A DNA stretch of 35,857 nt from Candidatus Saganbacteria bacterium. GTDB lineage: Bacteria; Margulisbacteria; WOR-1; O2-12-FULL-45-9. The notes under the pieces are model-generated. The model did no database searches and was not told the origin of the DNA. It saw nothing but the letters and a program-made list of their open reading frames with translations. Below, in pieces: positions 4,146 through 33,417 of the stretch (position 1 is the first letter of the stretch; each line of letters begins with the position of its first letter). The translations under genes and the position numbers were made by a program. The DNA is taken from NCBI GenBank assembly GCA_016219705.1, contig JACRKQ010000062.1:1-35857 (forward strand), in the 5' to 3' direction.

Positions 4146-4160
4146 TATACGATCCTCCCG

Positions 4161-4379: not shown

Positions 4380-4410
4380 TTCCCGTCAATCTTAGCCCAG
4401 CGCCTATTCT

Positions 4411-4439
4411 TTGTCAAACGCTTTATTTTATTGTAGAAT
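4411..4439 (+). promoter_or_regulatory. Sigma70-like promoter for gpmI: TTGTCA, 17-nt spacer, TG-TAGAAT
   Basis: TTGTCA at 4411-4416. Extended -10 TGTAGAAT at 4432-4439. The ATG is at 4449. Confidence 0.4.
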
Positions 4440-19444: not shown

Positions 19445-21181
19445 TCAGCCAATCTTAATCACTCGGTCCACTTTTTCCAGCGCCAATGGCTTGTGGGAGA
19501 CAATGATTATCGTCTTGTCGCGCAAGCGGCGAACAAGCTCTGACAAAATTTTTTCTTCACTGGCAGAATCAAGCGCCGCCGACGGTTCATCCAAGATCAA
19601 AATATCGGGCTCCTTGAGCAAGGCCCGGGCAATCGCCAGACGCTGGATCTGGCCGCACGAAAAATTGTTCCCTTGTTCTTCGATGGTTGCCTCATAACCA
19701 TGTGGCAGGCCAGTGATAAAATCGTGAATATTGGCCGTCCGGCAGGCGGCGACTATATCTTGAACGGCGGCGGTTTCGTTGCCATATCTTAAATTTTCTA
19801 GAATTGTTCCTGATAATAAACGCGGATTCTGCCCGACAAACCCCAGCCTTGCGCGCAGTGATTTAAGGTTGATCCGGCTAATCGGTCGGCCATCATAGAA
19901 AATTTCTCCCTCTTGCAGACGGTAAAAACCAAGCAGGAGATTTAAAAATGTCGACTTTCCCGCTCCGCTGGAACCGACCAGCAAAACATGCTCACGCGCT
20001 TTAATTGAAAAAGATTGTTCTTTGAAAATATATTTAAGGCCATCATAAGAGAAAGAGATATTTTTAAGCTCAATCTTGCCTTCTAATTTAACAATTTTTT
20101 CTTTTTCTTGCCCCTTGCCTCTTGTCTCTTGGTCCTCTCCTTCCGGCAGTATTTCATAAAAAGCGCTGACCCGCTGGAAAGCTGCCAGGGCATTCTGCAA
20201 TTGTAAATTGAAACTCGATAAATATTGTATCGGACTAAAGACATAGGACTGGTAAGCGAGAAAGGCATAGAGAGAACCGAGGCTCCAGTTTTTAGTGATG
20301 ACCAGCGGCAGGCCGATAAGCAAAACAATAAGATATGACAGATCAGTCAGCGAACCAAGCATGGTGCTGGTGATCGAGTTGACCGTCGTCGCCTGCAGTG
20401 AAAGACGATAATTATCTTTTAAGGAAGAACTGATCTTATCGATCTCCTTCTTTTCAGCGGCAAAAGATTTAATTAATGTCGTCTCCGCGATCGCCTCCTG
20501 CAGTTTTTTGTTGACGCGCGCCTGTTGCTCCATCTGGTTGTGGCTTAAGTTCCTGACTTTGCCGGAAAAATATTTGACGATGAGAAAAAAAAGCGGCAGC
20601 AGCAGGAAATTGACCAGCGCCAGCCGCCACTCCAGGAAGAAGAGGAAACAGAGGCCAAAAACAAGCTTTAATATGTTGGTTATAAAATAAGCTAATGTGC
20701 CAGTAAAAAACCACTGCACTCCCTGGACATCATTGGTAATTCGGCTTAAGAGATAGCCGGTTGACTGGTTGTCAAAAAACGATTTTGGAAAATGCATCAC
20801 CCGCGCTATCAGATCGGTCTGCAAATCAAGGAGAACATCACGCCCTAGTTTGGTAAAATAAAAATTTTGCCAGATGCTCGTCAATTTCTCCAGCAATTTA
20901 ACCAGAACAATCAACGGCAAAACAGCGATCAATAAATTCATTTTTCTTCCGAGGATCACATCATCAATCAGATAACGGGTGATGAGCGGCATAAAATAAC
21001 CGAGCGGCGTGAGCAGTAAAACGGCCAAGAAGCCGATGATCAACTGCCGGCGGTAGCGGGCAAAAAGAGGCAAGATATTCTTAAGACTAAAAGTTCCGAT
21101 ATTCCCGACTAAGTTCGCCGGCAGAATCTTGCTGGAAATACCGGATTTAAAATAATTGAGATAATCAATTAATATTTTCAT
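19445..21181 (-). CDS. ABC-B type exporter with fused permease and ATPase. It has no peptidase domain and is a probable exporter of the modified peptide.
   Basis: Six-TM N-terminal half. Walker A GSSGAGKST, signature FSCGQIQRL and Walker B ILILDE. A start at the internal Met (MKILIDYL) gives an ATGA overlap with the upstream HprK-like gene. The ORF track extends it to 21211. Confidence 0.8.
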   Translation of the reverse strand: MKILIDYLNYFKSGISSKILPANLVGNIGTFSLKNILPLFARYRRQLIIGFLAVLLLTPLGYFMPLITRYLIDDVILGRKMNLLIAVLPLIVLVKLLEKLTSIWQNFYFTKLGRDVLLDLQTDLIARVMHFPKSFFDNQSTGYLLSRITNDVQGVQWFFTGTLAYFITNILKLVFGLCFLFFLEWRLALVNFLLLPLFFLIVKYFSGKVRNLSHNQMEQQARVNKKLQEAIAETTLIKSFAAEKKEIDKISSSLKDNYRLSLQATTVNSITSTMLGSLTDLSYLIVLLIGLPLVITKNWSLGSLYAFLAYQSYVFSPIQYLSSFNLQLQNALAAFQRVSAFYEILPEGEDQETRGKGQEKEKIVKLEGKIELKNISFSYDGLKYIFKEQSFSIKAREHVLLVGSSGAGKSTFLNLLLGFYRLQEGEIFYDGRPISRINLKSLRARLGFVGQNPRLLSGTILENLRYGNETAAVQDIVAACRTANIHDFITGLPHGYEATIEEQGNNFSCGQIQRLAIARALLKEPDILILDEPSAALDSASEEKILSELVRRLRDKTIIIVSHKPLALEKVDRVIKIG

Positions 21182-22062
21182 TGACCAATTACCCTTTCCA
21201 TTTGCTCCCAAAACCGCCCGGTCAGGCTGATTTTAAGTTTATAGCAGGGGATATTTCTGGCCAGATGACAGGCATTATCAAAAATTTTCAGCTTGGTCTG
21301 GGTCTCTTCACTCTCCGAATAGGCTCGGAGACTGCGGCGGAACATTTGAAAACCGGCATCGTAAATTGAAACAGCCGCAACATTCTTTTTCATAACCTCT
21401 GCCGCATCATTTTCCGCCTGTTCCAAAAAGAATATTCCCTTAAGCGAATAAAATTGTTCAACCGGCCAATTCTTTTGGCCGTCATTTTTCCATAAATAAT
21501 TGCTCCAGGTCGGAAAAGGATGGACGAAATAGCGGCCAGCCGATTTAAAAATAATCGCCTCATCATCGGAAATCGCCTCCCAGGGATGAGGGATACGGCG
21601 GCAGCAGGTCGATTTGCCGGTATTGCCGGGCGCAGAGAGAAGATAGGCCGAACCTTCTTTGACCACAAGTCCAGAGTGAAAAGGCATGCCCTCTAGCGTT
21701 ATCGCCAGCTCGTGGACAAAATAAAGAAGATACCACATGCAAATTATGTTCATATTGTGGTCCTTATTATTTATATCAACTTTAACGACCAGATGGGAAT
21801 TTTGCGGATGCTGCCATAATTTGAGGTTCTTAAAATCCCTTACCTGCCAGCCGGTTTGAGTCATTTCCGGAATATCTTGCAGCGGAGGAAAATCCTTATC
21901 ACCGTCTTTGGGAAAGATGTAAACTTTCGCTCGATTGTCAGAAGCTTGCGTCGTTTTAAGCCTCATTATCGAAGCTAATTTCCGCAGGAAAGGTTCCACT
22001 TCCGGCTGGCCCGCAACCATCTCCCACTCACGCCCGGCAAACAATCGCAAGAGAAACGGCAT
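21178..22062 (-). CDS. HPr-kinase/phosphorylase-like P-loop protein, copy 1
   Basis: The P-loop LSAPGNTGKSTCC resembles the HprK C-terminal domain. Clear paralog of the protein at 26321..27238. Translationally coupled to the upstream rSAM gene. Confidence 0.65.
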   Translation of the reverse strand: MPFLLRLFAGREWEMVAGQPEVEPFLRKLASIMRLKTTQASDNRAKVYIFPKDGDKDFPPLQDIPEMTQTGWQVRDFKNLKLWQHPQNSHLVVKVDINNKDHNMNIICMWYLLYFVHELAITLEGMPFHSGLVVKEGSAYLLSAPGNTGKSTCCRRIPHPWEAISDDEAIIFKSAGRYFVHPFPTWSNYLWKNDGQKNWPVEQFYSLKGIFFLEQAENDAAEVMKKNVAAVSIYDAGFQMFRRSLRAYSESEETQTKLKIFDNACHLARNIPCYKLKISLTGRFWEQMERVIGQ

Positions 22063-23138
22063 TAGACAATCAATCGCGTACGGGGGAATAATTTTTTATT
22101 ATGAGCCTGCTGGCAGTACCAAAAAGAGGCCCAGAGATTTTTGGTCGAATAATAGTTTTGGGCGAGACAAAACCCCAGACAGCGGTTTTTCATGACGCAA
22201 TCATGGCAAACCCCTTCGAGGTCTTTGGGTAATCCATCACGGATCTTATTTAACATTGGATTATTTTGCCAAACATCGGCCAATTTGTCTTTCGCCGCAT
22301 CGCCAAAGTTAAATTCCGGCACTGTTTCGCCAATGCCGCAGAGCGCGTAGTGTCCGTTGCTTAAAACTCCAATAATGCCAAAAATGCCGCAGGTGCCGCA
22401 ACCGACGGCATTTTCCTTGCCAAAGATCCTCCCCAATGGCCGGAAAGCGACCGGATGGCTGTAGATCAATTTTATCTTGACCTGTTTAGCCAGGGTGTTT
22501 TCAATCCAGGCGCCAAGCTCGACTAATTCTTCCAGGGATAAAGTCTCGTCATTTTCGTGCATCTCTTTACCGCGGGCGGTTGGTTGGATCAAGTTAAATT
22601 TGACCGACCCGGCGCCATTTTTCTCGGCCAACTTGACAACATCTTCTATCTGATCTTTATTACGCCGCATGATCGACATGATGACCTGGGGCTTAAAACC
22701 GGCTGTCACTAAATTTCTGACGCCAGTCCATGCCGCTGCAAAACTTCCGGGGACCCGCCGTACCCATTCGTGGGTGGCGGCGTCCGCCCCGTCGACGCTG
22801 ACCGAAACAAAGGCCCCTTTGGCCGTCTTCATCTTTTGCGCCAATTCTGCTGTGCAGAGAACGCCATTGGTTTCAACCGTCAAATTTAATTTATTGACAA
22901 TAATGTAATCAAGAATAGCCTTGATGTCGGGATGGAGGAGTGGCTCTCCGCCGGTTAATTTAACCCCGGTTAAACCTAACGGTTTTGCCTGCTCAATAAT
23001 TGACTTAAACAAATCAAGCGGCAGAGAAGCAAAAACGTGCTGACCGTTCTGGAATTTCGGCTGGATCCAGCAGTGCCGGCAAAAGAGATTACACCCTTCG
23101 GTCAGGTAGAAATAGATACAGTTTAATTTTGGTGGCAT
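22062..23138 (-). CDS. Radical SAM / SPASM-domain peptide-modifying enzyme, copy 1
   Basis: The CNLFCRHC motif matches CxxxCxxC. The C-terminal Cys cluster (CGTCG...C...CHDCVMKNRCLGFC) is typical of SPASM auxiliary clusters. Confidence 0.85.
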   Translation of the reverse strand: MPPKLNCIYFYLTEGCNLFCRHCWIQPKFQNGQHVFASLPLDLFKSIIEQAKPLGLTGVKLTGGEPLLHPDIKAILDYIIVNKLNLTVETNGVLCTAELAQKMKTAKGAFVSVSVDGADAATHEWVRRVPGSFAAAWTGVRNLVTAGFKPQVIMSIMRRNKDQIEDVVKLAEKNGAGSVKFNLIQPTARGKEMHENDETLSLEELVELGAWIENTLAKQVKIKLIYSHPVAFRPLGRIFGKENAVGCGTCGIFGIIGVLSNGHYALCGIGETVPEFNFGDAAKDKLADVWQNNPMLNKIRDGLPKDLEGVCHDCVMKNRCLGFCLAQNYYSTKNLWASFWYCQQAHNKKLFPRTRLIV

Positions 23139-23141
23139 TTT

Positions 23142-23336
23142 TTATCGCCTGCCGTTTCTGCCTAAACTGGCTAGCTCATCTTTGAGAAAAAGATCCACCT
23201 CTAATTTTTTTGCCCATGATTTTAAATAGGCAAAATTGAGTTTTCCTTTGTTTGCCTGCAATATTTCCCTGACATCTTCCAGGTCTTTTTCCCGATTTAA
23301 ACGCTTTATAACCTCAATTAATAAATTTCTTGTCAT
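23142..23336 (-). CDS. Small hypothetical helical protein, 64 aa
   Basis: Lies 3 nt upstream of the rSAM gene and has a 4-nt overlap with the 62-aa gene. No Cys. No recognisable motif. Confidence 0.35.
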   Translation of the reverse strand: MTRNLLIEVIKRLNREKDLEDVREILQANKGKLNFAYLKSWAKKLEVDLFLKDELASLGRNGRR

Positions 23337-23521
23337 TTTACTTTCGCCATTCTGGCTAGTATTAAGCGGTTACGCTCGGCATGAGTCAAGTTCATTTTTT
23401 CTATCCGCTTCATAAGCTCTTTTTTGCTTAAGGCGGCTTTCATTAAACGAAAGCTAAAATCGGACAAATCCAACCAGGCGCGAATTTTTTCATTTACCGT
23501 TAATTTAATCTTGTGTCTCAT
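23333..23521 (-). CDS. Small hypothetical protein, 62 aa, possibly a ribbon-helix-helix-like regulator
   Basis: Begins with a short beta-strand-like segment KIKLTV followed by helices. First gene of the operon. No Cys. Confidence 0.35.
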   Translation of the reverse strand: MRHKIKLTVNEKIRAWLDLSDFSFRLMKAALSKKELMKRIEKMNLTHAERNRLILARMAKVK

Positions 23522-23599
23522 GTTTTTGACGCCACTATCTATTATAATCAGATGTCTCCGGTATTGTCAACCAGACGGCGCTGGGTGTAAAATCAGATA

Positions 23600-24715
23600 A
23601 TGAGCTCTTTTGTCTTACTTGGCGTCAATAGTTTTAACCCCGCTCTCTGCGACGGCGTTTCCAACAGCATCCTGGAGCTGATGGCTTTTTTGAAAAATAA
23701 AGGCCACCAAGTAAAAATAATTAATTATCTGACAGGAGAACCATACCGTCAGTTTATCTACAAGCAATTCAATAAAAATTCAACGAATTGGCAGGATGTC
23801 GGTTATCAGCTTACGGTCTCCGGCCTTGAAGTTGTGATGCGGCTTTTGCCTGACCGGGAAAAAGCTTCTCAATCTCAAGCGGTCAAACTAATTATGCGGG
23901 AGATAAAAGATTTACAGATAGATTTTGTTTTGACGATCGATAATTGCTTCTCCGCCCTTTTAGTCGCGCATTTGCTGAACATTCCCGGGGCCCATTGGTT
24001 TCATTCGGAAGCATACGTTAAAGAATTTCGCAACAAACCCTATTATCTAATGATGCTAAAAAATCGACAGGTATTGGCAACTTCACAGTATATCCAAGCC
24101 CGCATCAAAGCTTGTCTAGATCTGAATTCAATTGTCTGGTATCCGATCATTGACTTTAACCGCTGCCAAACCACAACCCAGACGACCACGGCTAATAATC
24201 TCGGTTTTTATTCCGGCGGGCCGCATAAAGGGGACGAGCTCGTGAATTACTTGATTGGACAGATGCCAGAGTACAATTTTATTACCGCGGGAAGATTGTT
24301 TCAAAGTATTTTTAAGACGGCTCCAAAAAACCTGGAAATATTAGGCGATGTGGCTGATATTAAAACTTTTTACCAAAAGATAAAATTATTGCTTGTCCCC
24401 TCTTTGGTCCCCGAAGGTTTTGGCCGGGTCATTGTGGAGGCGGCCGCCAATGGCATTCCGACTATTGCCAATAACGTCGGCGGGATTCCCGAAGCGCTGG
24501 GACAAAGCGGCCTATTGGTTGATGTTGAAAATATCAAACAGCCAAATATGCCTTTGTTGGTAAATAGATATCAAAGCATAATCGAACAGCTCTGCAACAA
24601 TAAAACAGATTATGATCTCTGTCAACAGCAAGCTTTAGCGCAAGCAAAAAAATATAAATTTTTACAGGAGCAGATGAATAATGAAAACTATCGCCTTATT
24701 ACTGGTAAAAAATGA
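23600..24715 (+). CDS. Glycosyltransferase, GT-B fold (family 1/4-like)
   Basis: The C-terminal motif EGFGRVIVEAAANGIPTIANNVGGIPE is typical of GT1/GT4 nucleotide-sugar binding. Confidence 0.75.
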   Translation: MSSFVLLGVNSFNPALCDGVSNSILELMAFLKNKGHQVKIINYLTGEPYRQFIYKQFNKNSTNWQDVGYQLTVSGLEVVMRLLPDREKASQSQAVKLIMREIKDLQIDFVLTIDNCFSALLVAHLLNIPGAHWFHSEAYVKEFRNKPYYLMMLKNRQVLATSQYIQARIKACLDLNSIVWYPIIDFNRCQTTTQTTTANNLGFYSGGPHKGDELVNYLIGQMPEYNFITAGRLFQSIFKTAPKNLEILGDVADIKTFYQKIKLLLVPSLVPEGFGRVIVEAAANGIPTIANNVGGIPEALGQSGLLVDVENIKQPNMPLLVNRYQSIIEQLCNNKTDYDLCQQQALAQAKKYKFLQEQMNNENYRLITGKK

Positions 24716-25637
24716 AGGTTGGATCTTGCCGACCACGCTACCTCAACTGAATAAATTTGTTGACGAAATCCTCGTCCTTGATACCAGCTCAACAGATAAT
24801 TCGCTAGCTATTTTAAAACACCTTAACATCTCTTTTCGACAGAAGAAATATGACACGCCGATAATTGACAATTCTGTCTGGCGGACAGAATTGCTGGATT
24901 GGGGACGCAGCCGCGGCGGGACCCACTTTGTCTGCCTGGACGCAGACGAAGCTTTTACTTCTCATCTCCTCCCGCATTTTAATGAATGGTTAAGCCGGCT
25001 GGAGCCTGGGGAAAAATTAATGCTTGATTGGCTGACCACCTGGAAAAGTCCGACCAAAATCAGAGTTGATAATTCCATTTGGAAAAAGATTCCCAAAGAT
25101 TTTATTTTTCGCGATCAAGCCGGCTTGCAGTTTGACGGGCAAACAATGCATGAGAACAGAACTCCAGGAAGTGGTAAGGCTAAATATGTGCCTCGCGAAA
25201 GAGGGGCGGTTTGGCATTTCCAATTTGCCGCTTTTGCCAGGTTTCAAATGAAGCAGGCTTTTTATCGAGTTAAGGAATTAAATGATAAAGGCCAGGCGAT
25301 GGATAATTTTAAATTAATCGACAGGATCAATAATTTTTACTCGATAACTTTGGATAATAGCGCCGCCCAGTGCGCAGATGCGCCAAAAAATTGGTACAGC
25401 GGCCTGCAAAATCTGGATAATATAAAAAATGCGCCGATGGGCTGGTTTTTACCGGCCATACTTGATTATTTCGCGCAAAAAGGGCTTGAGTATTTTGAGC
25501 CGCTGCAGATTTGGCACATTTCAGACCTTGAGGCCGAGTTTAGGCAAAAAATTGGCCGCGGTCCGAGATCGCTGTCACTGCCGCCTAAGCCGCGGATTGT
25601 CTCTTCTTCATGTCTTATGGGAGCTGATTCCTGGTAG
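24681..25637 (+). CDS. Putative glycosyltransferase, GT-A/family-2-like
   Basis: N-terminal IALLLVKNEG...ILVLDTSSTDNS and a later CLDADE motif. Confidence 0.5.
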   Translation: MKTIALLLVKNEGWILPTTLPQLNKFVDEILVLDTSSTDNSLAILKHLNISFRQKKYDTPIIDNSVWRTELLDWGRSRGGTHFVCLDADEAFTSHLLPHFNEWLSRLEPGEKLMLDWLTTWKSPTKIRVDNSIWKKIPKDFIFRDQAGLQFDGQTMHENRTPGSGKAKYVPRERGAVWHFQFAAFARFQMKQAFYRVKELNDKGQAMDNFKLIDRINNFYSITLDNSAAQCADAPKNWYSGLQNLDNIKNAPMGWFLPAILDYFAQKGLEYFEPLQIWHISDLEAEFRQKIGRGPRSLSLPPKPRIVSSSCLMGADSW

Positions 25638-26336
25638 TTGGTATTGTTCAATGATGGCAGCGAAAGCGCTTTTTTCCCGCTCAAAAATTTCTGTAAATTT
25701 TTCTTTGTCCAGGGTCAACTTAATAGTTGTATTGTGTTGATGCCAAATGTAATGGGCCAGGTCGATAACTGTCCTCTGGCCATTTTTCCTGGCCATCTGG
25801 TAGATAAAATCGTCGCCAAAGAACAGTTTTATTGGCGCGGGGATATTTTGCCATTCTGATCGCCGGCCAAAAATAAACCAGCCAATCCGTTCAAATTTTA
25901 ATTTATGTTCCGCGCCTAAATCTTGGAGATTAGGAGGATGATTTTGTCCTTTAAACAATCTGCTATACAAATCTGGGTGAAGATTATCCAGGCTTCTAAA
26001 AGTGACAAGCCCGATAGTCGGGTCTTGAATAATCTTCTCGCCTTTGCTTATAACCCGATCCCAAATTAAGCAATCATCGTTCAGCAGCAGGTAATAATCG
26101 GTTGTGGCCTGTTTAAGTCCCAAATTCCAGCTCTCATTAACATTAAAACGTTGATTAAAATGCGTTACTTTTAATCTGGGAGAGGAGCAATATTTTTTGC
26201 ATTCATTATCAAGGGTATTATCAATAATATGAATATAGCAATTTTGAGTCAGCAGCAAGTCCAGACTTTTCTCCAACATTTGCGGCGCCTGATTTAGACT
26301 GGGGATGATAACTGTGGTGTTTATCGTTTTAGGCAT
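25608..26336 (-). CDS. Glycosyltransferase family 2-like, short (242 aa)
   Basis: VIIPSLNQ...IIDNTLDN and LLLNDDCLIW (DxD-like) motifs. Overlaps the 3' end of the HprK-like copy 2. Confidence 0.6.
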   Translation of the reverse strand: MPKTINTTVIIPSLNQAPQMLEKSLDLLLTQNCYIHIIDNTLDNECKKYCSSPRLKVTHFNQRFNVNESWNLGLKQATTDYYLLLNDDCLIWDRVISKGEKIIQDPTIGLVTFRSLDNLHPDLYSRLFKGQNHPPNLQDLGAEHKLKFERIGWFIFGRRSEWQNIPAPIKLFFGDDFIYQMARKNGQRTVIDLAHYIWHQHNTTIKLTLDKEKFTEIFEREKSAFAAIIEQYQLPGISSHKT

Positions 26337-27238
26337 GTACTACTAAATACATTTTTTGTTAATTCATAATTGTTGATCGCCACCTCCATCTTATTCCAAA
26401 ATCGGCCGGTTAAGGTAAAATACAGGCGATGACAGGGAAGAGTACGAGTTAAGTTATAGGCATTATTGAATATTTTTAATTTCATCTTTGTAATTTCTTT
26501 TTTTGGAAAGCCGCTTAAATTTCGATGAAATATTTGCATCGCCCCATTATAAACAGCACCGATAGTAGTATTGTGACGTAATGATTCCACTCCATCTTCC
26601 ATCGCTTGTTTAAGAAAAAAAAATCCTGCTAGCGGATAAGCTTTTTCCACTGCCCAAGTTTTTTGATCAACATTCTCCCTGCAAAAATTACTAAAAGTTG
26701 GTAAGGGGTGTACCCAATATTGAGAGCCATGCTTAACAATTAGTGTTTCGTCATCAGCCAACGCTTGCCAAGGGGAGGGAATTCTTTGACAACAGGTCGA
26801 TTTCCCAGTGCCAGCAATAGCGGGGAGCAAATAAGCTTTGCTCTCTTTAATCACCATCCCCGCATGAAATGGCAGTCCGTCGGCATTAATCATCTCCTTA
26901 TATATATAAGTCAAAAGAAAGGATAAACAGTGTATCTCCATATGGCTATTTGGAGATGGGTCAAAACCAACTATTAAATGCGGCTCCTGGGGATGATCCA
27001 AAATCTTCACAGTCCCAAAATCTCGTACCCGCCAGTCGGGAGAAAAAAACTTCATTATTTTTTGATGGAATAGTTTTTCATTATTCAAAGAATAGAAATA
27101 TATTTTAGTATGATGAGAAATCGGAGCAACAATCAGCTGCATAATTGCGGCTAGTTTTTTTAACAATGCTTTGGCTTCCTTGCCAACGGCAACTAACTCC
27201 CACTTATGTCCATCAATCAAACGTAAAAGATAAGACAT
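26321..27238 (-). CDS. HPr-kinase/phosphorylase-like P-loop protein, copy 2
   Basis: P-loop LPAIAGTGKSTCCQRIPSPW. Collinear similarity to copy 1 throughout (LLRL...GxxWE, HAGMVIKESKAYLL, WVHPLPTFSNF). Starts 6 nt after precursor 1. Confidence 0.65.
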   Translation of the reverse strand: MSYLLRLIDGHKWELVAVGKEAKALLKKLAAIMQLIVAPISHHTKIYFYSLNNEKLFHQKIMKFFSPDWRVRDFGTVKILDHPQEPHLIVGFDPSPNSHMEIHCLSFLLTYIYKEMINADGLPFHAGMVIKESKAYLLPAIAGTGKSTCCQRIPSPWQALADDETLIVKHGSQYWVHPLPTFSNFCRENVDQKTWAVEKAYPLAGFFFLKQAMEDGVESLRHNTTIGAVYNGAMQIFHRNLSGFPKKEITKMKLKIFNNAYNLTRTLPCHRLYFTLTGRFWNKMEVAINNYELTKNVFSSTCLKR

Positions 27239-27244
27239 TAACCG

Positions 27245-27463
27245 TTATGAAGCGGTGCCGCCAGCAGAACAGCTACCTCCATTCCCTCCCTCGTTACATG
27301 CATAATTACTTAAACCGATGCCGCAAGACGAGAGAGGAGTCGAAGCTGATGTCCCGGTGACACAGCGATTTGTAGCGCTAGCCCCAGGACTACACTCTGC
27401 TGCAAATACTGAAACATTAAAAGAATCTTCTAAACATGGCTTCTCATACTTTATCTTTTCCAT
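27245..27463 (-). CDS. Precursor peptide 1, 72 aa. The leader carries the motif KIKYEKP. The core is Gly/Ser/Thr/Ala-rich with 6 Cys.
   Basis: MEKIKYEKPCLEDSFNVSVFAAECSPGASATNRCVTGTSASTPLSSCGIGLSNYACNEGGNGGSCSAGGTAS. A strong RBS AAGGGGG sits 8 nt upstream of the ATG. Confidence 0.7.
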   Translation of the reverse strand: MEKIKYEKPCLEDSFNVSVFAAECSPGASATNRCVTGTSASTPLSSCGIGLSNYACNEGGNGGSCSAGGTAS

Positions 27464-27493: not shown

Positions 27494-27802
27494 TTACCCC
27501 ACCGGTACTTCGACTTTCGTCAAGCGGCTTTCAACACCATCCAGCCGCCGATCCTGCTCCCGATCTTTCCCAACTGCCAAAGTCCTGTCCTCTCGCGCTT
27601 TGACTAGCTCGTCCATCACACCGTCTAATTTATTCAAAACATCATCTTTATGCTGTTTGCTCTCTTCCCGCAATTGCTTCATTTCTCCTCTCATCTCATT
27701 CTTAAACTGCGCTAAATCTTCCTTCGTTGCAAAGTTTTTCAAATCTTCCTTCGTTGCGAAAACTGTCTTTAATTTAGTGATATCCTTATCCGTAATTGCC
27801 AT
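27494..27802 (-). CDS. Hypothetical charged coiled-coil protein, 102 aa
   Basis: Highly charged helical sequence with a duplicated FATKEDL motif. RBS AGGTGA. Lies between rSAM copy 2 and precursor 1. Confidence 0.4.
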   Translation of the reverse strand: MAITDKDITKLKTVFATKEDLKNFATKEDLAQFKNEMRGEMKQLREESKQHKDDVLNKLDGVMDELVKAREDRTLAVGKDREQDRRLDGVESRLTKVEVPVG

Positions 27803-27840: not shown

Positions 27841-27870
27841 ATTATCGCAAATTTACCGAAAACTTGTCAA
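27841..27870 (-). promoter_or_regulatory. Sigma70-like promoter inside the cluster: TTGACA, 18-nt spacer, GATAAT
   Basis: On the minus strand, TTGACA is the complement of 27865-27870 and GATAAT the complement of 27841-27846. It lies upstream of the 102-aa gene and precursor 1. Confidence 0.4.
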
Positions 27871-27878
27871 CAACAAAC

Positions 27879-28997
27879 TCATGGCGCTGTCGCCACCAAG
27901 TTTTCGTCGGGCAAAACGCCCCCCTGGGACAGGAATTTTTTCAGGCAGGCATCGGGGCTGGGGCCGTATATTTCCCCCGTCAAGGTGTAGGAGAGCGCCG
28001 GGCAGCCGCCGCGGCAATAAGAAATATATTCGCAAGCACGGCAATCTGCAAATCTGTCGAGCGGAATTTCTCGCCGCTGCCTGAATTTAATCAATTCTGG
28101 GTGGTTAAGCCAGATGTCTTTTAGGTTCTCTTGATTTATCCGGCCCAGTTCAACGTCGTTGATCTGCGCGCAAGGAACGATAACCCCATCCGCCCGCACC
28201 GCCAATTTGCTAAAAACACCGCCGCAGCTGGTTAACAAACCGCAACCTCCTTCTCCTTCTCGCCCTTCTCGTTGAGCTTTTACCATTTTTAACCAGAATT
28301 TTGCTTCTGCCAGTGGACCAGCGGCGGCCGAAATACGATTACCATATTTTTGAATCAATTTTAACAAAGAGTTCATGGCAACTGTTCGTTCCGCCGGTGT
28401 CAACTGGATCTCATCAGAATTTTTCTGGCACAAACCAAGATAGGAGGCGGAATTGGTGGAAAATCCCGGCAAACCTAGGTCTTCAATAAGTAATTTGGCG
28501 ACATTTTCGAGATCATGGACATTATAGCGGTTGATGGTAACACGAACGGTTGTTGATAATTTGTATTTTTGCAGCTGCTTGACGGCGGCGACAGCTTTAA
28601 GGAATGTCCCTTGGCCGCGGCTGGCCTCGTGGATAATGGGCTGGGAACCGTCGATGGAGACCTGGACACTGTTGCAGCGTTTAGTCGCCGCTAAAAACTC
28701 CGCCCACTCTTCGGTAATTAAGGTGCCATTACTTAGGAGGCTAAAGCGCAGCCTGTTTTTGATAATGCCGTTGATAATCTCTTTTAAGTCAGAGCGAAAG
28801 AAGGGCTCGCCACCGGCCAGGCAGATATTAAAAACGCCGATTTTAGTTGCTTCCTCAAAGAACTTCAGCCATTCGGCCGCTGGAAGATCCTTTTCCACAC
28901 TGCCTGTACTGGTAAAATGGCTGCAATACTTACAGCGCAGGTTGCAATTGTTGGTAATATTAATGTCTACCCCTGACGGGGCGCTAATAAGTTTCAT
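27879..28997 (-). CDS. Radical SAM / SPASM-domain peptide-modifying enzyme, copy 2
   Basis: CNLRCKYC matches CxxxCxxC. C-terminal Cys-rich SPASM region (CGLLTSCGG...CAQ...CRACEYISYCRGGC). Lies 10 nt downstream of precursor 2. Confidence 0.85.
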   Translation of the reverse strand: MKLISAPSGVDINITNNCNLRCKYCSHFTSTGSVEKDLPAAEWLKFFEEATKIGVFNICLAGGEPFFRSDLKEIINGIIKNRLRFSLLSNGTLITEEWAEFLAATKRCNSVQVSIDGSQPIIHEASRGQGTFLKAVAAVKQLQKYKLSTTVRVTINRYNVHDLENVAKLLIEDLGLPGFSTNSASYLGLCQKNSDEIQLTPAERTVAMNSLLKLIQKYGNRISAAAGPLAEAKFWLKMVKAQREGREGEGGCGLLTSCGGVFSKLAVRADGVIVPCAQINDVELGRINQENLKDIWLNHPELIKFRQRREIPLDRFADCRACEYISYCRGGCPALSYTLTGEIYGPSPDACLKKFLSQGGVLPDENLVATAP

Positions 28998-29006
28998 AAG
29001 ACTCTA

Positions 29007-29210
29007 TCATCCTACTCCAGTTCCCGAATTGCATAAAGGCGGCGCACCTGGGGCGGAAGTCCCGCTAATACACCCATTAGCGCCAGTGGCCGATGTCCCA
29101 GTATTGCAATTATCAGTTGCAGAACTTCCTGTGCTACTACAGGGAGCCGCCTGCACTTCTCCAGAAAAATCTACCAGCTCTGGTTTCTCATACTTGATCT
29201 TTTTTTGCAA
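29007..29210 (-). CDS. Precursor peptide 2, about 67 aa from a TTG start. Same leader and core motifs as precursor 1. The core has 4 Cys.
   Basis: (M/L)QKKIKYEKPELVDFSGEVQAAPCSSTGSSATDNCNTGTSATGANGCISGTSAPGAPPLCNSGTGVG. RBS GAGGGG sits 6 nt before the TTG at 29210. The ORF track extends to 29420, but no ATG lies near the conserved leader. Confidence 0.6.
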   Translation of the reverse strand: MQKKIKYEKPELVDFSGEVQAAPCSSTGSSATDNCNTGTSATGANGCISGTSAPGAPPLCNSGTGVG

Positions 29211-29238: not shown

Positions 29239-29267
29239 TTTACACCAAAATAGTTATCTTGTATAAT
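29239..29267 (+). promoter_or_regulatory. Sigma70-like promoter for mtnP: TTTACA, 17-nt spacer, TG-TATAAT. It gives a near-leaderless transcript.
   Basis: TTTACA at 29239-29244. TGTATAAT at 29260-29267. The first in-frame ATG overlaps the -10, so the start is more likely the ATG at 29275. Confidence 0.4.
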
Positions 29268-29274
29268 GGTAATC

Positions 29275-30009
29275 ATGGTAAAAATTGGTATTATCGGCGG
29301 TTCGGGGTTAGACAATCCTGACATTTTAAAAGAGGCCGTCGACAAAAGTGGCGCCAATAAATACGGCCAGCCATCTTCTCCCCTAGCCTGCGGCAAAATC
29401 AACGGCGTGGCAGTCGTCATCCTGTCCCGCCATGGGCGCGATCACAGCATCATGCCGACCAAAGTTAATTTTTTAGCTAATGTGTACGCGCTGAAAGAAG
29501 AAGGCTGCACCCATATCCTGGCTGCCACAGCCGTCGGTTCGCTGCGAGAAGAGATCGCGCCCGGCAACCTGGTCTTTCCGTCGCAATTTATCGATTTTAC
29601 CCGCCGCCGCAATTTAACTTTTTTCACCGATCATGTCATCCATACCCCGATGAGCGATCCTTATGATAAACGATTGACCGATATTTTATGCCAGACTTGC
29701 GGCGAATTAAATTATAAATATAACCATGATGTCACGGTTATAACCATTGAAGGGCCCCGCTTCTCAACTCGGGCGGAGAGCCAGATGTTCCGCGCCTGGG
29801 GCGCTGATATTATTAACATGTCGACCTGTCCGGAAGTTATCCTGGCCAATGAGCTGGGGATCCCCTATCAGACCATCGCTATGTCAACAGATTACGATTG
29901 CTGGAAAGAAGATGAAGCGCCGGTCACTTTTGCCATGATCATGGAGCGAATGAAGGAAAACGCTGACAAAGTCAAAAATCTGTTAATTAACGTCGTCAGG
30001 AGGATATAA
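29275..30009 (+). CDS. mtnP: S-methyl-5'-thioadenosine phosphorylase / purine nucleoside phosphorylase
   Basis: [11 protein letters not shown]-terminus and [17 protein letters not shown] motif. The ORF track starts at 29266. Confidence 0.85.
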
Positions 30010-30536: not shown

Positions 30537-31531
30537 AAGTCAAAGGTCAACATTATCGGACCATTTGGTTTGCCCCGCCTGTTGTCTTCTTAATCGAACA
30601 AAATCTCCTCCCTTTTTCTTTTCAAATCGTTAAATGCGCTGATTTTCAGGCGACTTGCCGGGCAATTAAAAATATGACCGTGCGCGGGGCTGGAGCGATT
30701 GGCGCGGCGGCGGGGTTTGCCATGGCGCAAGCTTTATTAGCCAAAGTTGATCCGCTGAAAGCCAAAAAAGAGATCGAAGCGACGCGGCCAACCGCGCAGA
30801 ATCTGTTTTACGCGGCAGAGCGGGTCTTCCAGGCCGCCGATCCTGTCGCTTGCGCCCAAAAGATCGCCGACGAAGACGCCGCAAGCTGCCAGAGAATCGG
30901 CGAGCTTGGCAGTCAATTAATTATAGACGGAATGAGAATAGAAACACATTGCAACGCCGGCTGGCTGGCGTTTGTCGATTATGGCACGGCTCTTGCGCCC
31001 ATTTACGCCGCCAGAGATCAGGGCAAAAATGTTTTTGTTTATGTCGATGAAACACGGCCGCGCGGCCAGGGAGCGCGCCTGACCGCCTGGGAATTATTCA
31101 ATGAAAAAATTCCGCACGCGATTATTCCCGATAACGCCGGCGCCTCCTTAATGTCGCAGGGGAAAGTTGATATGGTAATCGTCGGCGCTGACCGCATCGC
31201 CGCCAATGGCGACGTTGCCAATAAGATCGGCACTCTGGAAAAAGCGCTTGCCGCCCATGAATATGGCATCCCCTTTTACGTCGCGGCGCCAACGGCAACC
31301 ATTGATTTGCAGTGCGCTTCCGGCCAGGACATCCCGATTGAAGAAAGAAGTGAAAAGGAAGTTACTCACCAGTCGGGTATTAATGAAGAAGGCCAAAATT
31401 CCACTATCCTGGTCTGTTCCCCCGGATCAACGGCGTATAATCCGGCATTTGATGTTACTCCCGCCAAATACATCACAAAAATCATCACGGAGAGAGGGGT
31501 TGTGGCTGCTCCAGCAGCTCTTTTTCTTTGA
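30533..31531 (+). CDS. mtnA: S-methyl-5-thioribose-1-phosphate isomerase (eIF-2B-like family)
   Basis: [18 protein letters not shown] motif of the MtnA/eIF2B family. 4-nt overlap with apt. Confidence 0.8.
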
Positions 31532-31763
31532 GAGAATTGATAAACTCTTCCACATCTGCGGCGACGTTTTCCGGCACATTGTCGCAAGATTCTTTTACTC
31601 TGGCGATAATTTCTGCAACCTCGTTTTTACCGTCTAATAATTTGGTCACAAGCACCGAAGTCGGGTTGAGTCCAAAAGTATTCCCCGTATCCGGATCAAA
31701 CAATACCCCCCATTCATCCAGTTCCTCCCGCAAAACAATCGAATCAAGCAATTTTGGCTGCAT
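31485..31763 (-). CDS. PqqD-family protein (RiPP recognition element-like peptide chaperone)
   Basis: 92 aa. Motifs VLFDPDTGNTFGLNPTSVLVTKLLDGKNEVAEIIARV...[14 protein letters not shown] match the PqqD pattern (LN-T---I---LDG---V-EI...V-EFL--L---GLI). Confidence 0.7.
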   Translation of the reverse strand: MQPKLLDSIVLREELDEWGVLFDPDTGNTFGLNPTSVLVTKLLDGKNEVAEIIARVKESCDNVPENVAADVEEFINSLKEKELLEQPQPLSP

Positions 31764-31801: not shown

Positions 31802-32302
31802 TCATGGCCTTGTCAACAACGAATTCAGGCGATAATTGAGCCGGCCGGTCATATGCCGGCAGGCGCGGCGCAGTTTTTTATTAAGCAGGAGTTTTAAGGC
31901 CGGGGCAAGACAGCGATAAAAATAATGAGACATAATGTTATAGAAAGCGCGCTGATCCTGCCGTGTGAACATCTGCCGCCTTCCCCGAAAAATCTCTTTC
32001 ACCCGCCCGATGATCTGCTCGCTTTTGATGCTGCTGGCCGTCAGATTATTATCCCCTTTTTCCAGGAAACTTATTTCCCGGCTATTTTTGTTAACGCGAA
32101 CAATGCGATGGCAGATCAATTTCCCATACCCCTGAAAAACAACGATATCCCCGGCTTTGATGGCTTGAGGCAGGACATTTTCCAGAAAAATAACGTCCCC
32201 TTCTTTAAGGGTCGGCGCCATGCTCCGGCCGATAAGTTTGGAGACTTTAAATTTCTTTAATTTCTGCAGCGGGGATAATTGGTTAATGTCTATATTATTC
32301 AT
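31802..32302 (-). CDS. S24/S26-family (signal-peptidase-I-like) serine peptidase and putative leader peptidase
   Basis: GRSMAPTLKEGDVIFL matches the S26 Ser box (SMxPTL). GDIVVF follows downstream. A start at the internal Met gives an ATGA overlap with the upstream gene. The ORF track extends to 32368. Confidence 0.6.
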   Translation of the reverse strand: MNNIDINQLSPLQKLKKFKVSKLIGRSMAPTLKEGDVIFLENVLPQAIKAGDIVVFQGYGKLICHRIVRVNKNSREISFLEKGDNNLTASSIKSEQIIGRVKEIFRGRRQMFTRQDQRAFYNIMSHYFYRCLAPALKLLLNKKLRRACRHMTGRLNYRLNSLLTRP

Positions 32303-33417
32303 TGCCTTTTTTTTGCAAAAAAACTGCCGTAAAACACCATCATAGGATACCATAGATAATGCCGCCAAGTAATCTCGTCAGCAGAGCGCAGGTTAAAAGC
32401 TGCAACAACCTTATCGCGATGAGGGATGAAATAAGGCCCGATAACGGGAAACAATTCTTGCGGTGAATCTAAGATCAATAAGCGCCAAAAATACCTGCGC
32501 CCTTTATTACCGGATATTATCAGTTTATACGGAAATTTTGTGATGAGAAAACGGTTAATAAAAGAAGTTTTTGGCAGCCTTATTAATAATTTTTCAGGGG
32601 AATCAACTTTCAATAACTCGCGCCTTAATCTCAAACATAATAAAAAAGCCTTGGTCATATTATAGCTTTTGATTAGACCAATAAATTTATCCCAATCAAT
32701 TTCCTGCTCATATCTTAGGATAATTTCCGAAACGTCGACCAATAACTTTAAAGAGGCGAAGGACTTATAAAAGAACATGATCAGAGCATGCAGTAAGAGG
32801 ATCTCGGGTGGAAACATTTTATATTGGAAACCGGCAATATTTTCTGATCGAATATCCCGCCATAAAATCTCCGGCGGGATGCGACAGCGATTGAATGGCG
32901 CCAGATTCCAATGGATCTCCACTCCGCCAATTTCTGGGTGCGTTAAAACTAAATGCTGGCTTTGTTCCAGAAAATATTCCTCTGACAAAGACTCAATACT
33001 TTTCCAGCCGGAATTAATCAATAAATCCCGGGTCTTAATCAGCTCGTTTTCCCTGACCAGGAAATCAATATCGCTGGAATGGCGTAAAGCAATATTGCCA
33101 TAAATTAATTCGGCCCAGACGGGCCCTTTCAGCGCTATAAAGTCGATTCCTTCTTCTGCCAATAATCTAAAAATTTTCTTCTGTCTGGCGTCCAAAGTTA
33201 GGTTATGGATGAGATTATAACGGTAAATTGCCTGTAATGAGGCTTTAGCCGCCGGGGGGATTGATTTATCTCTAAGGTTTAAATATAATAGCGGCGCCAC
33301 CTGGTTGACCAGCGCCAGATCGATTAAATGATCCCAATCGATTTTCCCGTTTAAGAGAGTGTTAATTGCAGAAGTATCTGCTCTGGTTTTAGCGCAAGCA
33401 AAAAGCAATTGGTCCAT
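32299..33417 (-). CDS. Putative nucleotidyltransferase-family protein of the type often found with PqqD-like genes
   Basis: 372 aa. The GPVWAELIYGNIALRHSSDIDFLV region resembles a minimal nucleotidyltransferase fold motif (G[SG]...D.D). Confidence 0.45.
   Translation of the reverse strand: MDQLLFACAKTRADTSAINTLLNGKIDWDHLIDLALVNQVAPLLYLNLRDKSIPPAAKASLQAIYRYNLIHNLTLDARQKKIFRLLAEEGIDFIALKGPVWAELIYGNIALRHSSDIDFLVRENELIKTRDLLINSGWKSIESLSEEYFLEQSQHLVLTHPEIGGVEIHWNLAPFNRCRIPPEILWRDIRSENIAGFQYKMFPPEILLLHALIMFFYKSFASLKLLVDVSEIILRYEQEIDWDKFIGLIKSYNMTKAFLLCLRLRRELLKVDSPEKLLIRLPKTSFINRFLITKFPYKLIISGNKGRRYFWRLLILDSPQELFPVIGPYFIPHRDKVVAAFNLRSADEITWRHYLWYPMMVFYGSFFAKKRQ

Follow-up and report, generated by a model that had tools for sequence, protein, structure and literature searches.

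Introduction

Enzymes of the GT4 fold of the GtfA/GtfB and SdgA/SdgB types O-glycosylate Ser/Thr-rich polypeptides in the cytoplasm before export; the former are O-GlcNAc transferases, and both types act on serine-rich repeat adhesins. We know of no GT-B/GT4 glycosyltransferase previously found to tailor a ribosomal peptide modified by a radical SAM (rSAM) enzyme. A precursor, an rSAM/SPASM maturase and a glycosyltransferase do occur together in the TIGR04157 systems (glyco_rSAM_CFB), an architecture predicted by bioinformatics only, and TIGR04157 is presumably part of a peptide system of Bacteroidales. In that order, rSAM clusters that include accessory glycosyltransferases have been described (PMC10352776). 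The glycocin systems (sublancin, thurandacin, pallidocin; PMC6405829, PMC12457901; PDB 7msk/7msn/7msp) have glycosyltransferases of the SunS/ThuS type, GT2 enzymes that S- or O-glycosylate peptides. In their clusters the glycosyltransferase is accompanied by a precursor of the glycocin type, by thiol-disulfide oxidoreductases and by an ABC exporter with a peptidase domain.

The SynChlorMet (SCM) cassette is defined in NCBIfam/TIGRFAMs by models TIGR04248-TIGR04251, and no product or function for it was found in the searchable literature under SynChlorMet, ScmE/ScmF or the TIGR accessions. Here we analyze a stretch of 35,857 nucleotides from a Candidatus Saganbacteria contig (the window) in which an earlier note placed three glycosyltransferases between two rSAM modules and proposed either that they glycosylate the encoded peptides or that they belong to an adjacent polysaccharide pathway.

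Results

Gene content and operon structure

On profile scores the locus is a split SCM cassette, with predicted ScmD, ScmE, ScmF, two ScmC proteins and two precursors. The features, with coordinates in the window, are as follows.

19445..21211, minus strand: ABC exporter, permease plus ATPase, without a peptidase domain (PF00664 and PF00005 only)
21178..22062, minus strand: ScmC-1 (TIGR04249 249.9 bits, cutoff 125)
22062..23138, minus strand: ScmF radical SAM/SPASM maturase (TIGR04251 571.7 bits, cutoff 400)
23522..23599, no strand assigned: divergent promoter region, 78 bp (consensus matches only)
23600..24715, plus strand: GT4 (GT-B, retaining type), 371 aa (Pfam GT4 domains above cutoffs)
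24681..25637, plus strand: GT2-like (GT-A) glycosyltransferase, 318 aa
25608..26336, minus strand: short GT2, 242 aa (PF00535 43.8 bits)
26321..27238, minus strand: ScmC-2, P-loop protein related to HprK (TIGR04249 214.8 bits, cutoff 125)
27245..27463, minus strand: SCM precursor peptide 1, 72 aa (leader MEKIKYEKPCL plus repeats)
27494..27802, minus strand: predicted coiled-coil ORF, 102 aa (first gene after a promoter-like site at 27870..27841)
27879..28997, minus strand: ScmE radical SAM/SPASM maturase (TIGR04250 548.5 bits, cutoff 400)
29007..29210, minus strand: SCM precursor peptide 2, 67 aa (probable TTG start at 29210)
31485..31763, minus strand: ScmD, PqqD-like peptide chaperone (TIGR04248 89.5 bits; PF05402 58.9 bits)
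31802..32368, minus strand: SipW-type / archaeal-type signal peptidase I (TIGR02228 73.6 bits)
32299..33417, minus strand: NTP_transf_5 nucleotidyltransferase (PF14907 165.8 bits)
33423..35840, minus strand: Wza-like outer-membrane protein of the polysaccharide-export type, 805 aa (one Poly_export match and four SLBB domains)

ScmE, ScmF and both ScmC proteins score above the curated cutoffs, and ScmD falls just under its own (89.5 bits for a cutoff of 100) with a clear PqqD Pfam domain (58.9 vs 23.4). The rSAM modules of the earlier note are thereby identified as ScmF (572 bits) and ScmE (548 bits) and its HprK-like genes as ScmC (250 and 215 bits); the three glycosyltransferases that it placed at 23600-26336 are all ORFs there (one GT4, one GT2-like, one GT2), and its Wza-like protein carries the expected domains. 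The 102-aa coiled-coil ORF has no family match, and the only other copy found lies in a contig of the same organism (L001; L numbers denote our loci).

The coiled-coil ORF, precursor 1, ScmC-2 and the short GT2 form a minus-strand operon in that order, and the short GT2 overlaps the 3′ end of ScmC-2 (stop at 26321), as the earlier note had observed, the overlap being 16 nt; the operon linkage in the window is real. At its own 3′ end the short GT2 shares 30 nt with the convergent 318-aa GT2. A second minus-strand operon, sm62-sm64-ScmF-ScmC1-ABC, diverges from the operon formed by the GT4 and the 318-aa GT2, in which the second gene overlaps the 3′ end of the first by 35 nt and has an AGGAG Shine-Dalgarno sequence 10 nt upstream. 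Between the divergent operons we found a perfect TTGACA-18-TATAAT on the minus strand (23570..23541; a consensus match only) and, on the plus strand (23564..23593), a 10/12 match to the promoter consensus that ends 6 nt before the GT4 ATG.

One explanation for this arrangement, possible though on the unlikely side, is that cell-envelope glycan synthesis (EPS, LPS or S-layer glycan) is the task of all three glycosyltransferases and that they came to lie in the SCM cassette by insertion only. The GT4 subfamily would then co-occur with SCM because such cassettes are often located among envelope-biogenesis genes, or because SCM product and polysaccharide leave the cell together through Wza-type channels. 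The opposite strand of the GT4 and 318-aa GT2 genes, the lower GC content of the region (0.39-0.43 at 23-27 kb vs 0.48-0.49 in the ScmE/ScmF regions) and the Wza-like gene all favor this explanation, and because the latter gene lies at the contig edge, polysaccharide genes may lie beyond position 35857. However, the 35.8-kb window holds no flippase, polymerase, co-polymerase/Wzc, initiating transferase or sugar-nucleotide gene apart from the housekeeping MraY, its remaining genes being Scm, methionine/adenine-salvage or housekeeping genes. Moreover, the stop of the Wza-like gene lies 5 nt from the start of NTP_transf_5, which couples it to NTP_transf_5-SipW-ScmD and not to the glycosyltransferases.

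Precursor peptides

The repeats of precursor 1 (C-x2-G-[ST]-[SG]-A-x3-C) and its leader, of the (K)YEKPxL type, are common to the precursors of other SCM loci. For precursor 2, GAGGGG lies 6 nt upstream of the TTG codon, and MQKKIKYEKPELVDF can be aligned to the beginning of precursor 1. The earlier note described the cores as unusually rich in Ser/Thr/Cys; rich they are, but not unusually so, since SCM precursors in general are alike in this respect, with an S+T fraction of 0.09-0.40 across ∼75 of them. We conclude that Ser/Thr/Cys-rich cores are a general trait of SCM precursors that is not confined to glycosyltransferase-bearing loci. Ser/Thr richness was also discarded as a mark of GT4-linked loci, whose precursors showed no difference in Ser/Thr content from those of other loci.

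Glycosyltransferases across SCM loci

The SCM cassette is widespread: at E≤1e-60, a search with ScmE returned >3,300 protein clusters, and the loci obtained span Deltaproteobacteria, Nitrospirae, Chlorobi, Aminicenantes, Omnitrophica, Margulisbacteria and one methanogen. Homologues of the accessory genes recur in a set of 80 other loci from genomes (NTP_transf_5 in 39, the ABC exporter in 36, the SipW-type peptidase in 31), but glycosyltransferases are not conserved SCM components, with orthologs of the GT4 in only 2 of the 80 and homologues of the 318-aa and 242-aa GT2s in none. The small number of loci carrying a GT4 ortholog indicates that this enzyme is dispensable for the core SCM pathway.

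In ∼17 of the 80 loci, a glycosyltransferase-like gene of one kind or another lies no more than 10 kb from ScmE on either side. If such genes make up 1-2% of genomic genes, a rough estimate, this is approximately the background level. General enrichment near SCM was likewise rejected when 120 unassigned neighbor ORFs from ∼40 loci were classified with Pfam, Glycos_transf_1 and Glycos_transf_2 both falling outside the 25 most frequent families. Matches to PF00953 near SCM may simply be MraY, as in the window.

Several SCM loci carry other, non-orthologous glycoconjugate enzymes in or beside the cassette: a GT-C-like gene in L011, where it lies within the operon, and another in L078, PMT_2 together with a GT2 in L028, and Wzy_C adjoining SCM in L010, L020 and L027. 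As a group these enzymes count in favor of peptide glycosylation. The Wzy_C genes, together with Wza-like ORFs in 4 of the 80 loci (L019, L027, L058, L065), are also points in favor of an envelope-glycan role.

The two GT2 genes

The 242-aa GT2 matches Glycos_transf_2 (cutoff 23.3 bits) with a conserved NDD motif, and its start at 26336 is backed by an N-terminus, MxxINTTVIIPxLN, conserved in two homologues. It is nearly an orphan, with only three homologues in 5.8 billion proteins. Two of these lie on ∼1-kb contigs, and the fragments upstream of them have no match to ScmC or to a Pfam family; for the fragment in L003, a GT17-like assignment was dropped because Pfam gave it no support, leaving only that it is not ScmC. 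Co-conservation of the short GT2 with the HprK-like and precursor genes, a check suggested in the earlier note, was not observed: no SCM locus among the 80 has a copy, and neither of the two homologues elsewhere is preceded by ScmC. The latter finding also favors an envelope-glycan role. The TIGR04195 (SunS/ThuS) profile does not match the 242-aa GT2, whose own profile matched only heparosan synthase in the PDB (E 0.009); an AF2 model from a 3-sequence alignment was unusable (pLDDT 45.7).

For the 318-aa GT2, the nearest solved structures are those of SunS/ThuS, on which its GT-A catalytic domain with DxD superposes; the N-terminal donor-binding half and the DxD motif are shared with SunS. Another reading is that the 318-aa GT2 is the primary peptide glycosyltransferase, carrying out SunS/ThuS-like S- or O-glycosylation of precursor Cys/Ser, with the GT4 and the short GT2 in secondary roles. 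We regard this as very unlikely. The TIGR04195 score is 17.5 bits (E 1.4e-3) for a cutoff of 350, so that the glycocin analogy, with the other GT2 giving no match at all, fails as a statement of family membership. All five homologues of the 318-aa GT2 with known context lie in polysaccharide clusters, with Wzm/Wzt, Wzx, epimerase and methyltransferase genes. These contexts favor the envelope-glycan explanation. The window trio as a whole does not correspond to the GT2 / GT2-like / GT1 trio of polysaccharide clusters, however, because only the middle gene is homologous.

A GT4 subfamily linked to SCM genes

Both domains of the 371-aa enzyme score above Pfam cutoffs (PF13692 Glyco_trans_1_4, 57.6 bits, cutoff 27; PF00534 Glycos_transf_1, 51.8, cutoff 26.4; N-domain PF13439 Glyco_transf_4, 34.0, cutoff 28.5). 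The EX7E motif is present, with E272 nearly invariant and E280 invariant in a 20-sequence alignment (A5), which together with the domain scores places the enzyme in CAZy GT4 (retaining GT-B). Among 1.84 billion representatives, its subfamily comprises 61 clusters at E≤1e-30, all full length; beyond this set, matches cover the donor domain only, and the subfamily is thus small and sharply bounded. Orthologs are 29-41% identical over their full length.

Neighboring genes were readable at 19 loci with a GT4 ortholog, and 16 of these are SCM-linked, a proportion from biased sampling in that the motif patterns of the metagenome scan were built from three SCM-linked sequences. Scm core genes adjoin the ortholog in nine (L052, L082, L086, L088, L089, L090/L116/L117, L092, L095, L104) and SCM accessory genes, here meaning an SCM-type ABC gene, NTP_transf_5, SipW, an extra rSAM/SPASM gene of ∼300 aa or a PqqD-like gene, in seven (L084, L085, L087, L102, L103, L119, L120). 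The position of the GT4 gene varies (5′ of ScmD, 3′ of ScmC, or facing away from the ABC gene), and the host loci are diverse (GC 44-65%, ScmE 42-75% identical), which argues for selection on the linkage rather than inherited synteny. At the SCM-linked loci it is usually the only glycosyltransferase present, as in L116/L117, where it comes last in ScmD-E-F-C-GT4 and is the sole glycosyltransferase within 10 kb.

These contexts weigh against an envelope-glycan role for the GT4, although the remaining three loci (L094, L096, L098), where genes for a Wzc-like tyrosine kinase, a LysM protein and a Wzb-like phosphatase lie upstream, are of the EPS type and favor it. Thus the two readings of the earlier note divide gene by gene. 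Its refuting observation, that the glycosyltransferases track with EPS/LPS genes, holds for the 318-aa GT2 but not for the GT4, which the note had not singled out and which supports a role in the pathway.

Alternatively, the GT4 could act as BshA and MshA do and supply the pathway with a glycosylated small molecule or lipid, such as a cofactor, thiol or carrier, rather than glycosylate the peptide itself. Consistent with this idea, the subfamily finds its best NCBIfam and PDB matches among enzymes of the BshA and MshA types, over the donor domain only, and an extra rSAM/SPASM gene (∼300 aa) directly after the GT4 in L086, L087 and L089 could act on a sugar. However, the NCBIfam matches are far under the cutoffs (40 bits vs 274 to 462) and no NCBIfam model names the subfamily; the PDB profile matches are generic GT4 enzymes (MshA, BshA, PimA), and the subfamily has an N-terminal acceptor domain of its own. 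With no other cofactor or thiol synthesis genes conserved nearby, we consider this alternative very unlikely.

Two further observations on the GT4 loci were set aside. The ORFs following the GT4 in L084/L085/L089 ('orf144'/'orf131') were rejected as a conserved partner because their antisense-like composition and their overlap with conserved minus-strand ORFs mark them as probable shadow ORFs of minus-strand genes. A mirror-tree comparison of GT4 and ScmE identities gave r=0.77, but a single clade (L052/L082/L095) drives this value and phylogeny confounds it, and we do not count it as evidence.

Discussion

We tentatively favor, at a little under an even chance, the explanation that the SCM peptide is glycosylated by the GT4, acting as an optional tailoring enzyme, and that the two GT2s were recruited in this lineage to lengthen the glycan. 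The gene identities, operon overlaps and co-occurrence statistics are observed; from these we infer acceptor, donor and sequence of steps as follows. SCM would be a pathway resembling RiPP maturation, in which the PqqD-like ScmD binds precursors that combine a (K)YEKPxL leader with Cys/Gly/Ser/Thr/Ala-rich repeats, ScmE, ScmF (radical SAM/SPASM) and ScmC modify them, and the SipW-type peptidase, the ABC exporter and an outer-membrane channel provide processing and export. At this locus, the cassette is split by two opposite-strand inserts, one of them the GT4 / 318-aa GT2 operon. The GT4, a cytoplasmic GT-B enzyme of the retaining type, probably glycosylates the peptide, given that it belongs to a small family adjoining such clusters in many distant bacteria. 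Drawing on an NDP-sugar, it would attach the initial sugar to a Ser/Thr (or Cys) residue of the SCM core. The 318-aa GT2 would have been drawn from a family otherwise acting on sugar acceptors in O-antigen/EPS-type clusters. Since the two GT2s are joined into the SCM and GT4 operons here, their most likely role is to lengthen the glycan on the peptide into a short oligosaccharide.

The broader proposition is more doubtful: that in a subset of lineages a dedicated GT4-fold enzyme glycosylates rSAM-crosslinked SCM peptides, and that at this locus two recruited GT2s extend the sugar to give a secreted glycopeptide of a new class. If true, rSAM thioether-type chemistry would be linked to glycosylation, and a GT-B enzyme would join the short list of RiPP glycosyltransferases, which is now dominated by SunS-type GT2s. 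The recurrence of non-orthologous GT-C, PMT_2 and Wzy_C genes at SCM loci would then mean that glycosylation or conjugation of the product evolved several times by different routes. The GT4 subfamily that follows the cassette offers a concrete handle, predicting a glycosylated product that can be sought by mass spectrometry, and a minimal gene set for reconstitution can be named (precursor, ScmD/E/F/C and GT4). The three neighboring glycosyltransferases have separate histories and should not be handled as one unit.

Comparison with known systems

Polysaccharide clusters of the Wzx/Wzy- or Wzm/Wzt-dependent kind have a flippase or ABC-2 transporter, a polymerase or co-polymerase and sugar-nucleotide genes beside the glycosyltransferases. 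None of these occurs in the window, where the Wza-like gene at the contig edge is the one gene that would suit such a cluster. In agreement with the NCBIfam/TIGRFAMs definition of SCM, the locus has the core genes, the family leader, the ABC exporter, the SipW-type peptidase and NTP_transf_5. In contrast to the usual order ScmD-ScmE-ScmF-precursor-ScmC-SipW-NTP5, it is in three pieces, split by MTAP-APRT-MtnA and by the GT4-GT2 insert; there are two copies each of ScmC and the precursor, and there are three glycosyltransferases where 78 of the 80 other loci lack a GT4 ortholog and all lack both GT2s.

With the glycocins the locus shares a glycosyltransferase beside a ribosomal precursor and an ABC exporter. 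It differs in that no C39-peptidase ABC transporter and no thiol-disulfide oxidoreductase/thioredoxin-type genes are present among the annotated ORFs of the window; the leader is of the (K)YEKPxL type, two rSAM/SPASM enzymes are found instead, and the enzyme that covaries with the cassette is a GT-B/GT4 and not a GT2. From the TIGR04157 systems the locus is set apart by its maturases and precursors and by a different glycosyltransferase family, 1 of 20 GT4 subfamily members matching TIGR04157 at E 6.5e-6, which does not amount to membership. Similarly, one subfamily member matches the SdgA model (E 7.6e-7), but there is no significant specific similarity to GtfA/GtfB or SdgA/SdgB and no GtfB-like partner was identified; in contrast to the adhesins modified by those enzymes, the substrates here would be short rSAM-crosslinked peptides.

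The glycosyltransferase genes lie within a SynChlorMet cassette

The gene map of the window was drawn from the ORF listing and family scans. Because ScmE, ScmF and ScmC (the last of these twice) all gave family matches, the two radical SAM modules described in the earlier note, which are indeed present, are the halves of one SynChlorMet (SCM) cassette. ScmC is HprK-like, ScmD is PqqD-like and ScmE and ScmF are radical SAM/SPASM proteins. In the window, ScmC and the precursor are each duplicated, and what is usually a single cassette has been reorganized as three transcription units.

Genes of the window, with family evidence
First 19 kb: MurD, MraY, iPGM, PFK, PGI, LigA, TruB, RbfA, IF-2 and NusA, housekeeping
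GroEL/GroES, minus strand
19445-21211, minus: ABC exporter
21178-22062, minus: ScmC-1 (250 bits, above the curated cutoff)
22062-23138, minus: ScmF (572 bits, above the curated cutoff)
23142-23521, minus: two small ORFs, 64 and 62 aa, heading the ScmF operon
23600-24715, plus: GT4 (three Pfam cutoffs passed)
24681-25637, plus: GT2-like protein, 318 aa (homologues, AF2 model)
25608-26336, minus: short GT2, 242 aa (PF00535 above cutoff)
26321-27238, minus: ScmC-2 (215 bits, above the curated cutoff)
27245-27463, minus: precursor 1
27494-27802, minus: 102-aa coiled-coil ORF (cc102), heading the precursor-1 operon
27879-28997, minus: ScmE (548 bits, above the curated cutoff)
29007 to about 29210, minus: precursor 2
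29266-31531, plus: MTAP, APRT and MtnA trio
31485-31763, minus: ScmD (89.5 bits, slightly below the cutoff of 100)
Next, minus: SipW-type signal peptidase, then NTP_transf_5 nucleotidyltransferase, then Wza-like protein (805 aa)

GC content falls to 0.39-0.43 across 23-27 kb, against 0.48-0.49 for the ScmE and ScmF regions. Neither the two small ORFs nor cc102 had a family match, and in a comparison of the window with 80 SCM loci, homologues of all three were found only on L001, a contig of the same organism. The MTAP-APRT-MtnA insert, which runs antisense, separates precursor 2/ScmE from ScmD; its products may salvage 5'-deoxyadenosine or MTA made by both radical SAM enzymes. MTAP homologues also occur near SCM or GT4 genes in loci L018, L084 and L089, the latter two also having a PfkB kinase.

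All three genes between the modules are real glycosyltransferases, as the earlier note had read them, on the combined evidence of Pfam matches, motifs, homologues and an AF2 model. GT4 retains the EX7E motif and the short GT2 carries a conserved NDD motif. The 318-aa protein itself scores below the Pfam cutoffs; it has ∼130 homologues, most of them with PF00535, an invariant DADE motif, and an AF2 model (pLDDT 92.8) whose structural neighbors are all GT-A enzymes. The previously reported overlap of the short GT2 with ScmC-2 also proved correct by coordinates and a start codon check: it begins 16 nt ahead of the ScmC-2 stop, a start confirmed by an N-terminus conserved in two homologues. The 318-aa gene in turn begins 35 nt ahead of the GT4 stop, with an AGGAG sequence in front. 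The two GT2 genes are convergent, and their 30-nt overlap falls within non-conserved C-terminal tails. In the 78-bp gap between GT4 and the ScmF operon (23522-23599), the minus strand carries a perfect sigma-70 consensus and the plus strand a 10 of 12 match, and an 11 of 12 sigma-70-type match precedes the cc102-precursor 1-ScmC-2-short GT2 operon, all of these being consensus matches only.

Glycosyltransferases are not a general component of SCM cassettes

A ScmE alignment of 22 sequences was used to scan one genome per species, yielding 318 ScmE-encoding stretches; the best 80 were fetched with flanks of up to 10 kb and their ORFs were searched with the window proteins. Among these best 80 loci, ScmF was present in 80, ScmD in 70 and ScmC in 49, with NTP_transf_5 in 39, the ABC exporter in 36 and SipW in 31, and the usual order was [ABC]-precursor-ScmD-ScmE-ScmF-precursor-ScmC-SipW-NTP5. 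None of the 80 loci held a homologue of the 318-aa or the 242-aa GT2, and family HMMs gave generic GT2s in a few. Strong full-length GT4 homologues were found in two, L082 (235 bits) and L052 (224 bits), where the gene is immediately followed by ScmD in the same orientation. Any glycosyltransferase-like gene within 10 kb of ScmE was seen in ∼17 of 80 loci; by our own estimate such genes make up ∼1-2% of a genome, which would yield roughly this number. When 120 unassigned neighbor ORFs from ∼40 loci were compared with Pfam, neither Glycos_transf_1 nor Glycos_transf_2 was among the 25 commonest families. From the near-background frequency, the Pfam scan and the homologue counts, we conclude that glycosyltransferases are not a general component of the SCM cassette.

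GT4 belongs to a subfamily found beside SCM genes in most readable loci

A metagenome scan with a three-sequence GT4 alignment gave 26 loci, which were annotated with the window proteins, HMMs from the 80 loci, Pfam/NCBIfam searches of selected neighbors and three extra look-ups. GT4 contexts were SCM-linked in 16 of the 19 loci with readable neighbors (loci outside these 19 being too short to judge), a fraction to be read with the caveat that the scan patterns came from sequences already linked to SCM. Scm core genes adjoin GT4 in L052, L082, L086, L088, L089, L090/L116/L117, L092, L095 and L104. Elsewhere GT4 lies beside accessory genes only: an SCM-type ABC gene (L084 and L085), rSAM/SPASM and HlyD (L087), NTP_transf_5 (L102 and L119), a PqqD-like gene (L103), or SipW, NTP_transf_5 and ABC together (L120). 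These loci are diverse (GC 44-65%; ScmE 42-75% and GT4 29-59% identical), and GT4 precedes ScmD, follows ScmC or diverges from the ABC gene, depending on the locus. In L116/L117, where GT4 closes the operon ScmD-E-F-C-GT4, the next genes are QueA and RuvABC on the opposite strand, so that GT4 is the sole glycosyltransferase nearby.

In the remaining three loci (L094, L096 and L098), a Wzc-like tyrosine kinase (GNVR + P-loop), a LysM protein and a Wzb-like low-molecular-weight phosphotyrosine phosphatase lie upstream of GT4 orthologs that are 36-39% identical; the contigs stop just past GT4, leaving only the upstream side readable. These contexts favor the main alternative explanation, that the glycosyltransferases serve an envelope glycan and are merely embedded in the SCM cassette, as does the Wza gene of the window. 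Against this explanation, flippase, polymerase and sugar-nucleotide genes are absent from the window, and beside Scm genes GT4 is mostly the sole glycosyltransferase.

When 1.84 billion representatives were scanned in full with HMMER, 61 GT4 clusters matched at E≤1e-30, each over the full length; weaker matches covered the C-terminal donor domain only. The N-domain carries a conserved motif, PGxHFFHS, at residues 129-136. No NCBIfam model reached its cutoff for any of 20 subfamily members, and among solved proteins the closest were generic GT4s (e.g. 7mi0, MshA and BshA). That GT4 acts on a small-molecule acceptor appears improbable.

Directly after the GT4 ortholog, L086 (1527-2426), L087 (2517-3080) and L089 (9170-10084) encode a third and shorter rSAM/SPASM protein (∼300 aa); the three are mutually homologous and are named by no curated family.

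The two GT2 proteins have different relatives

Five homologues of the 318-aa GT2 on long contigs (45-52% identical) all lie in polysaccharide clusters with Wzm/Wzt or Wzx, epimerases, methyltransferases and heptose-pathway genes. The usual neighbors of the homologue are a second GT2 and a large GT1 fusion protein. These five contexts contain neither rSAM nor Scm genes, and the flanking glycosyltransferases have no homology to the window GT4 or short GT2. Relatives of the 318-aa GT2 serve glycan assembly, a further point for an envelope-glycan function, which we nonetheless regard as rather unlikely overall. With the SunS family model, whose cutoff is 350 bits, the 318-aa protein scored 17.5 bits, so it is of a GT-A subtype common to glycocin enzymes, yet outside their family. 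We give little credence to a SunS-like priming role for it.

The 242-aa GT2 is a near-orphan. Among 5.8 billion proteins it had just three matches, one being the same gene on another contig of this organism and the others two homologues (46% and 41% identical) on ∼1-kb contigs, where the upstream fragments are not ScmC and have no Pfam match.

Other glycan and outer-membrane genes at SCM loci

The SCM operon of another Saganbacterium includes a gene for a putative LA_3751/LA_3752-type GT-C glycosyltransferase (183 bits against a cutoff of 200; L011, 6892-8556), where its ORF overlaps both neighbors in the order ABC-GTC-ScmC; a homologue directly follows ScmE in a Syntrophales locus (L078, about 3250 to 4422). 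An operon in L028 (102-6761, minus strand), directly divergent from two SCM precursors, encodes a 9-TM protein, a GT2, an rSAM-like gene, a 600-aa ORF and a PMT_2 (GT-C) protein; by analogy, its GT2 and GT-C pair resembles a periplasmic glycosylation set. Three loci, two from Eubacteriales and one from Nitrospirae (L010, 848-2260; L020, 411-2372; L027, 4532-5944), encode a Wzy_C (O-antigen ligase) family membrane protein immediately ahead of the SCM cassette and in the same orientation, and L027 also has a Wza-like ORF near SCM. In three deltaproteobacterial SCM loci a FapF-like outer-membrane barrel (159 bits, well short of the cutoff, to the model for the amyloid transporter FapF) follows SipW (L052, 15123-16232; L082, 14784-15893; L095, 16277-17362), whereas in the window a Wza-like protein is instead coupled to NTP_transf_5-SipW-ScmD. 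The outer-membrane export component seems to differ among SCM systems.

Precursor composition

SCM precursors of many phyla share a leader, (K)YEKPxLxxL, and core repeats of C-x2-G-[ST]-[SG]-A-x3-C. The two window precursors and ∼75 precursors in L005-L095 have 2 to 13 Cys per peptide, with up to five or more precursors at some loci. The S+T fraction of SCM precursors lies between 0.09 and 0.40 and does not differ between GT4-linked and other loci. The Ser/Thr/Cys-rich cores noted earlier are real, but the trait belongs to the whole SCM precursor family and is no sign of glycosylation.

A proposed role for the glycosyltransferases

The reading that we tentatively favor, at somewhat below even confidence, makes GT4 an optional, SCM-dedicated tailoring enzyme and has the two GT2s, added in this lineage, extend the first sugar. 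Like GT4-fold enzymes in general, GT4 would use an NDP-sugar donor in the cytoplasm and retain anomeric configuration, and no signal peptide or membrane segment is evident in the GT4 sequence. GT4 would glycosylate the SCM core peptide. Both GT2s would be additions in the Saganbacterium lineage, the 318-aa protein, translationally coupled to GT4, coming from a family whose members work on sugar acceptors, and the short GT2 being coupled to ScmC-2; most plausibly, both would lengthen the glycan from the first sugar.

Comparison with known systems

The analogy to glycocins drawn in the earlier note did not hold as family membership. The 318-aa protein falls far short of the SunS model cutoff, no genes for a C39-peptidase ABC exporter or a thiol-disulfide oxidoreductase were found in the window, the precursor leader is different and the cassette contains rSAM enzymes; we conclude that this is not a glycocin system. 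The literature that we searched yielded no paper on the SCM cassette. The arrangement is like that of predicted cassettes combining rSAM/SPASM, peptide and glycosyltransferase genes (the TIGR04157 family; Bacteroidales clusters, PMC10352776), which are also uncharacterised and whose families differ from those of the window. GT4 enzymes that O-glycosylate serine-rich proteins resemble the window GT4 by analogy only.
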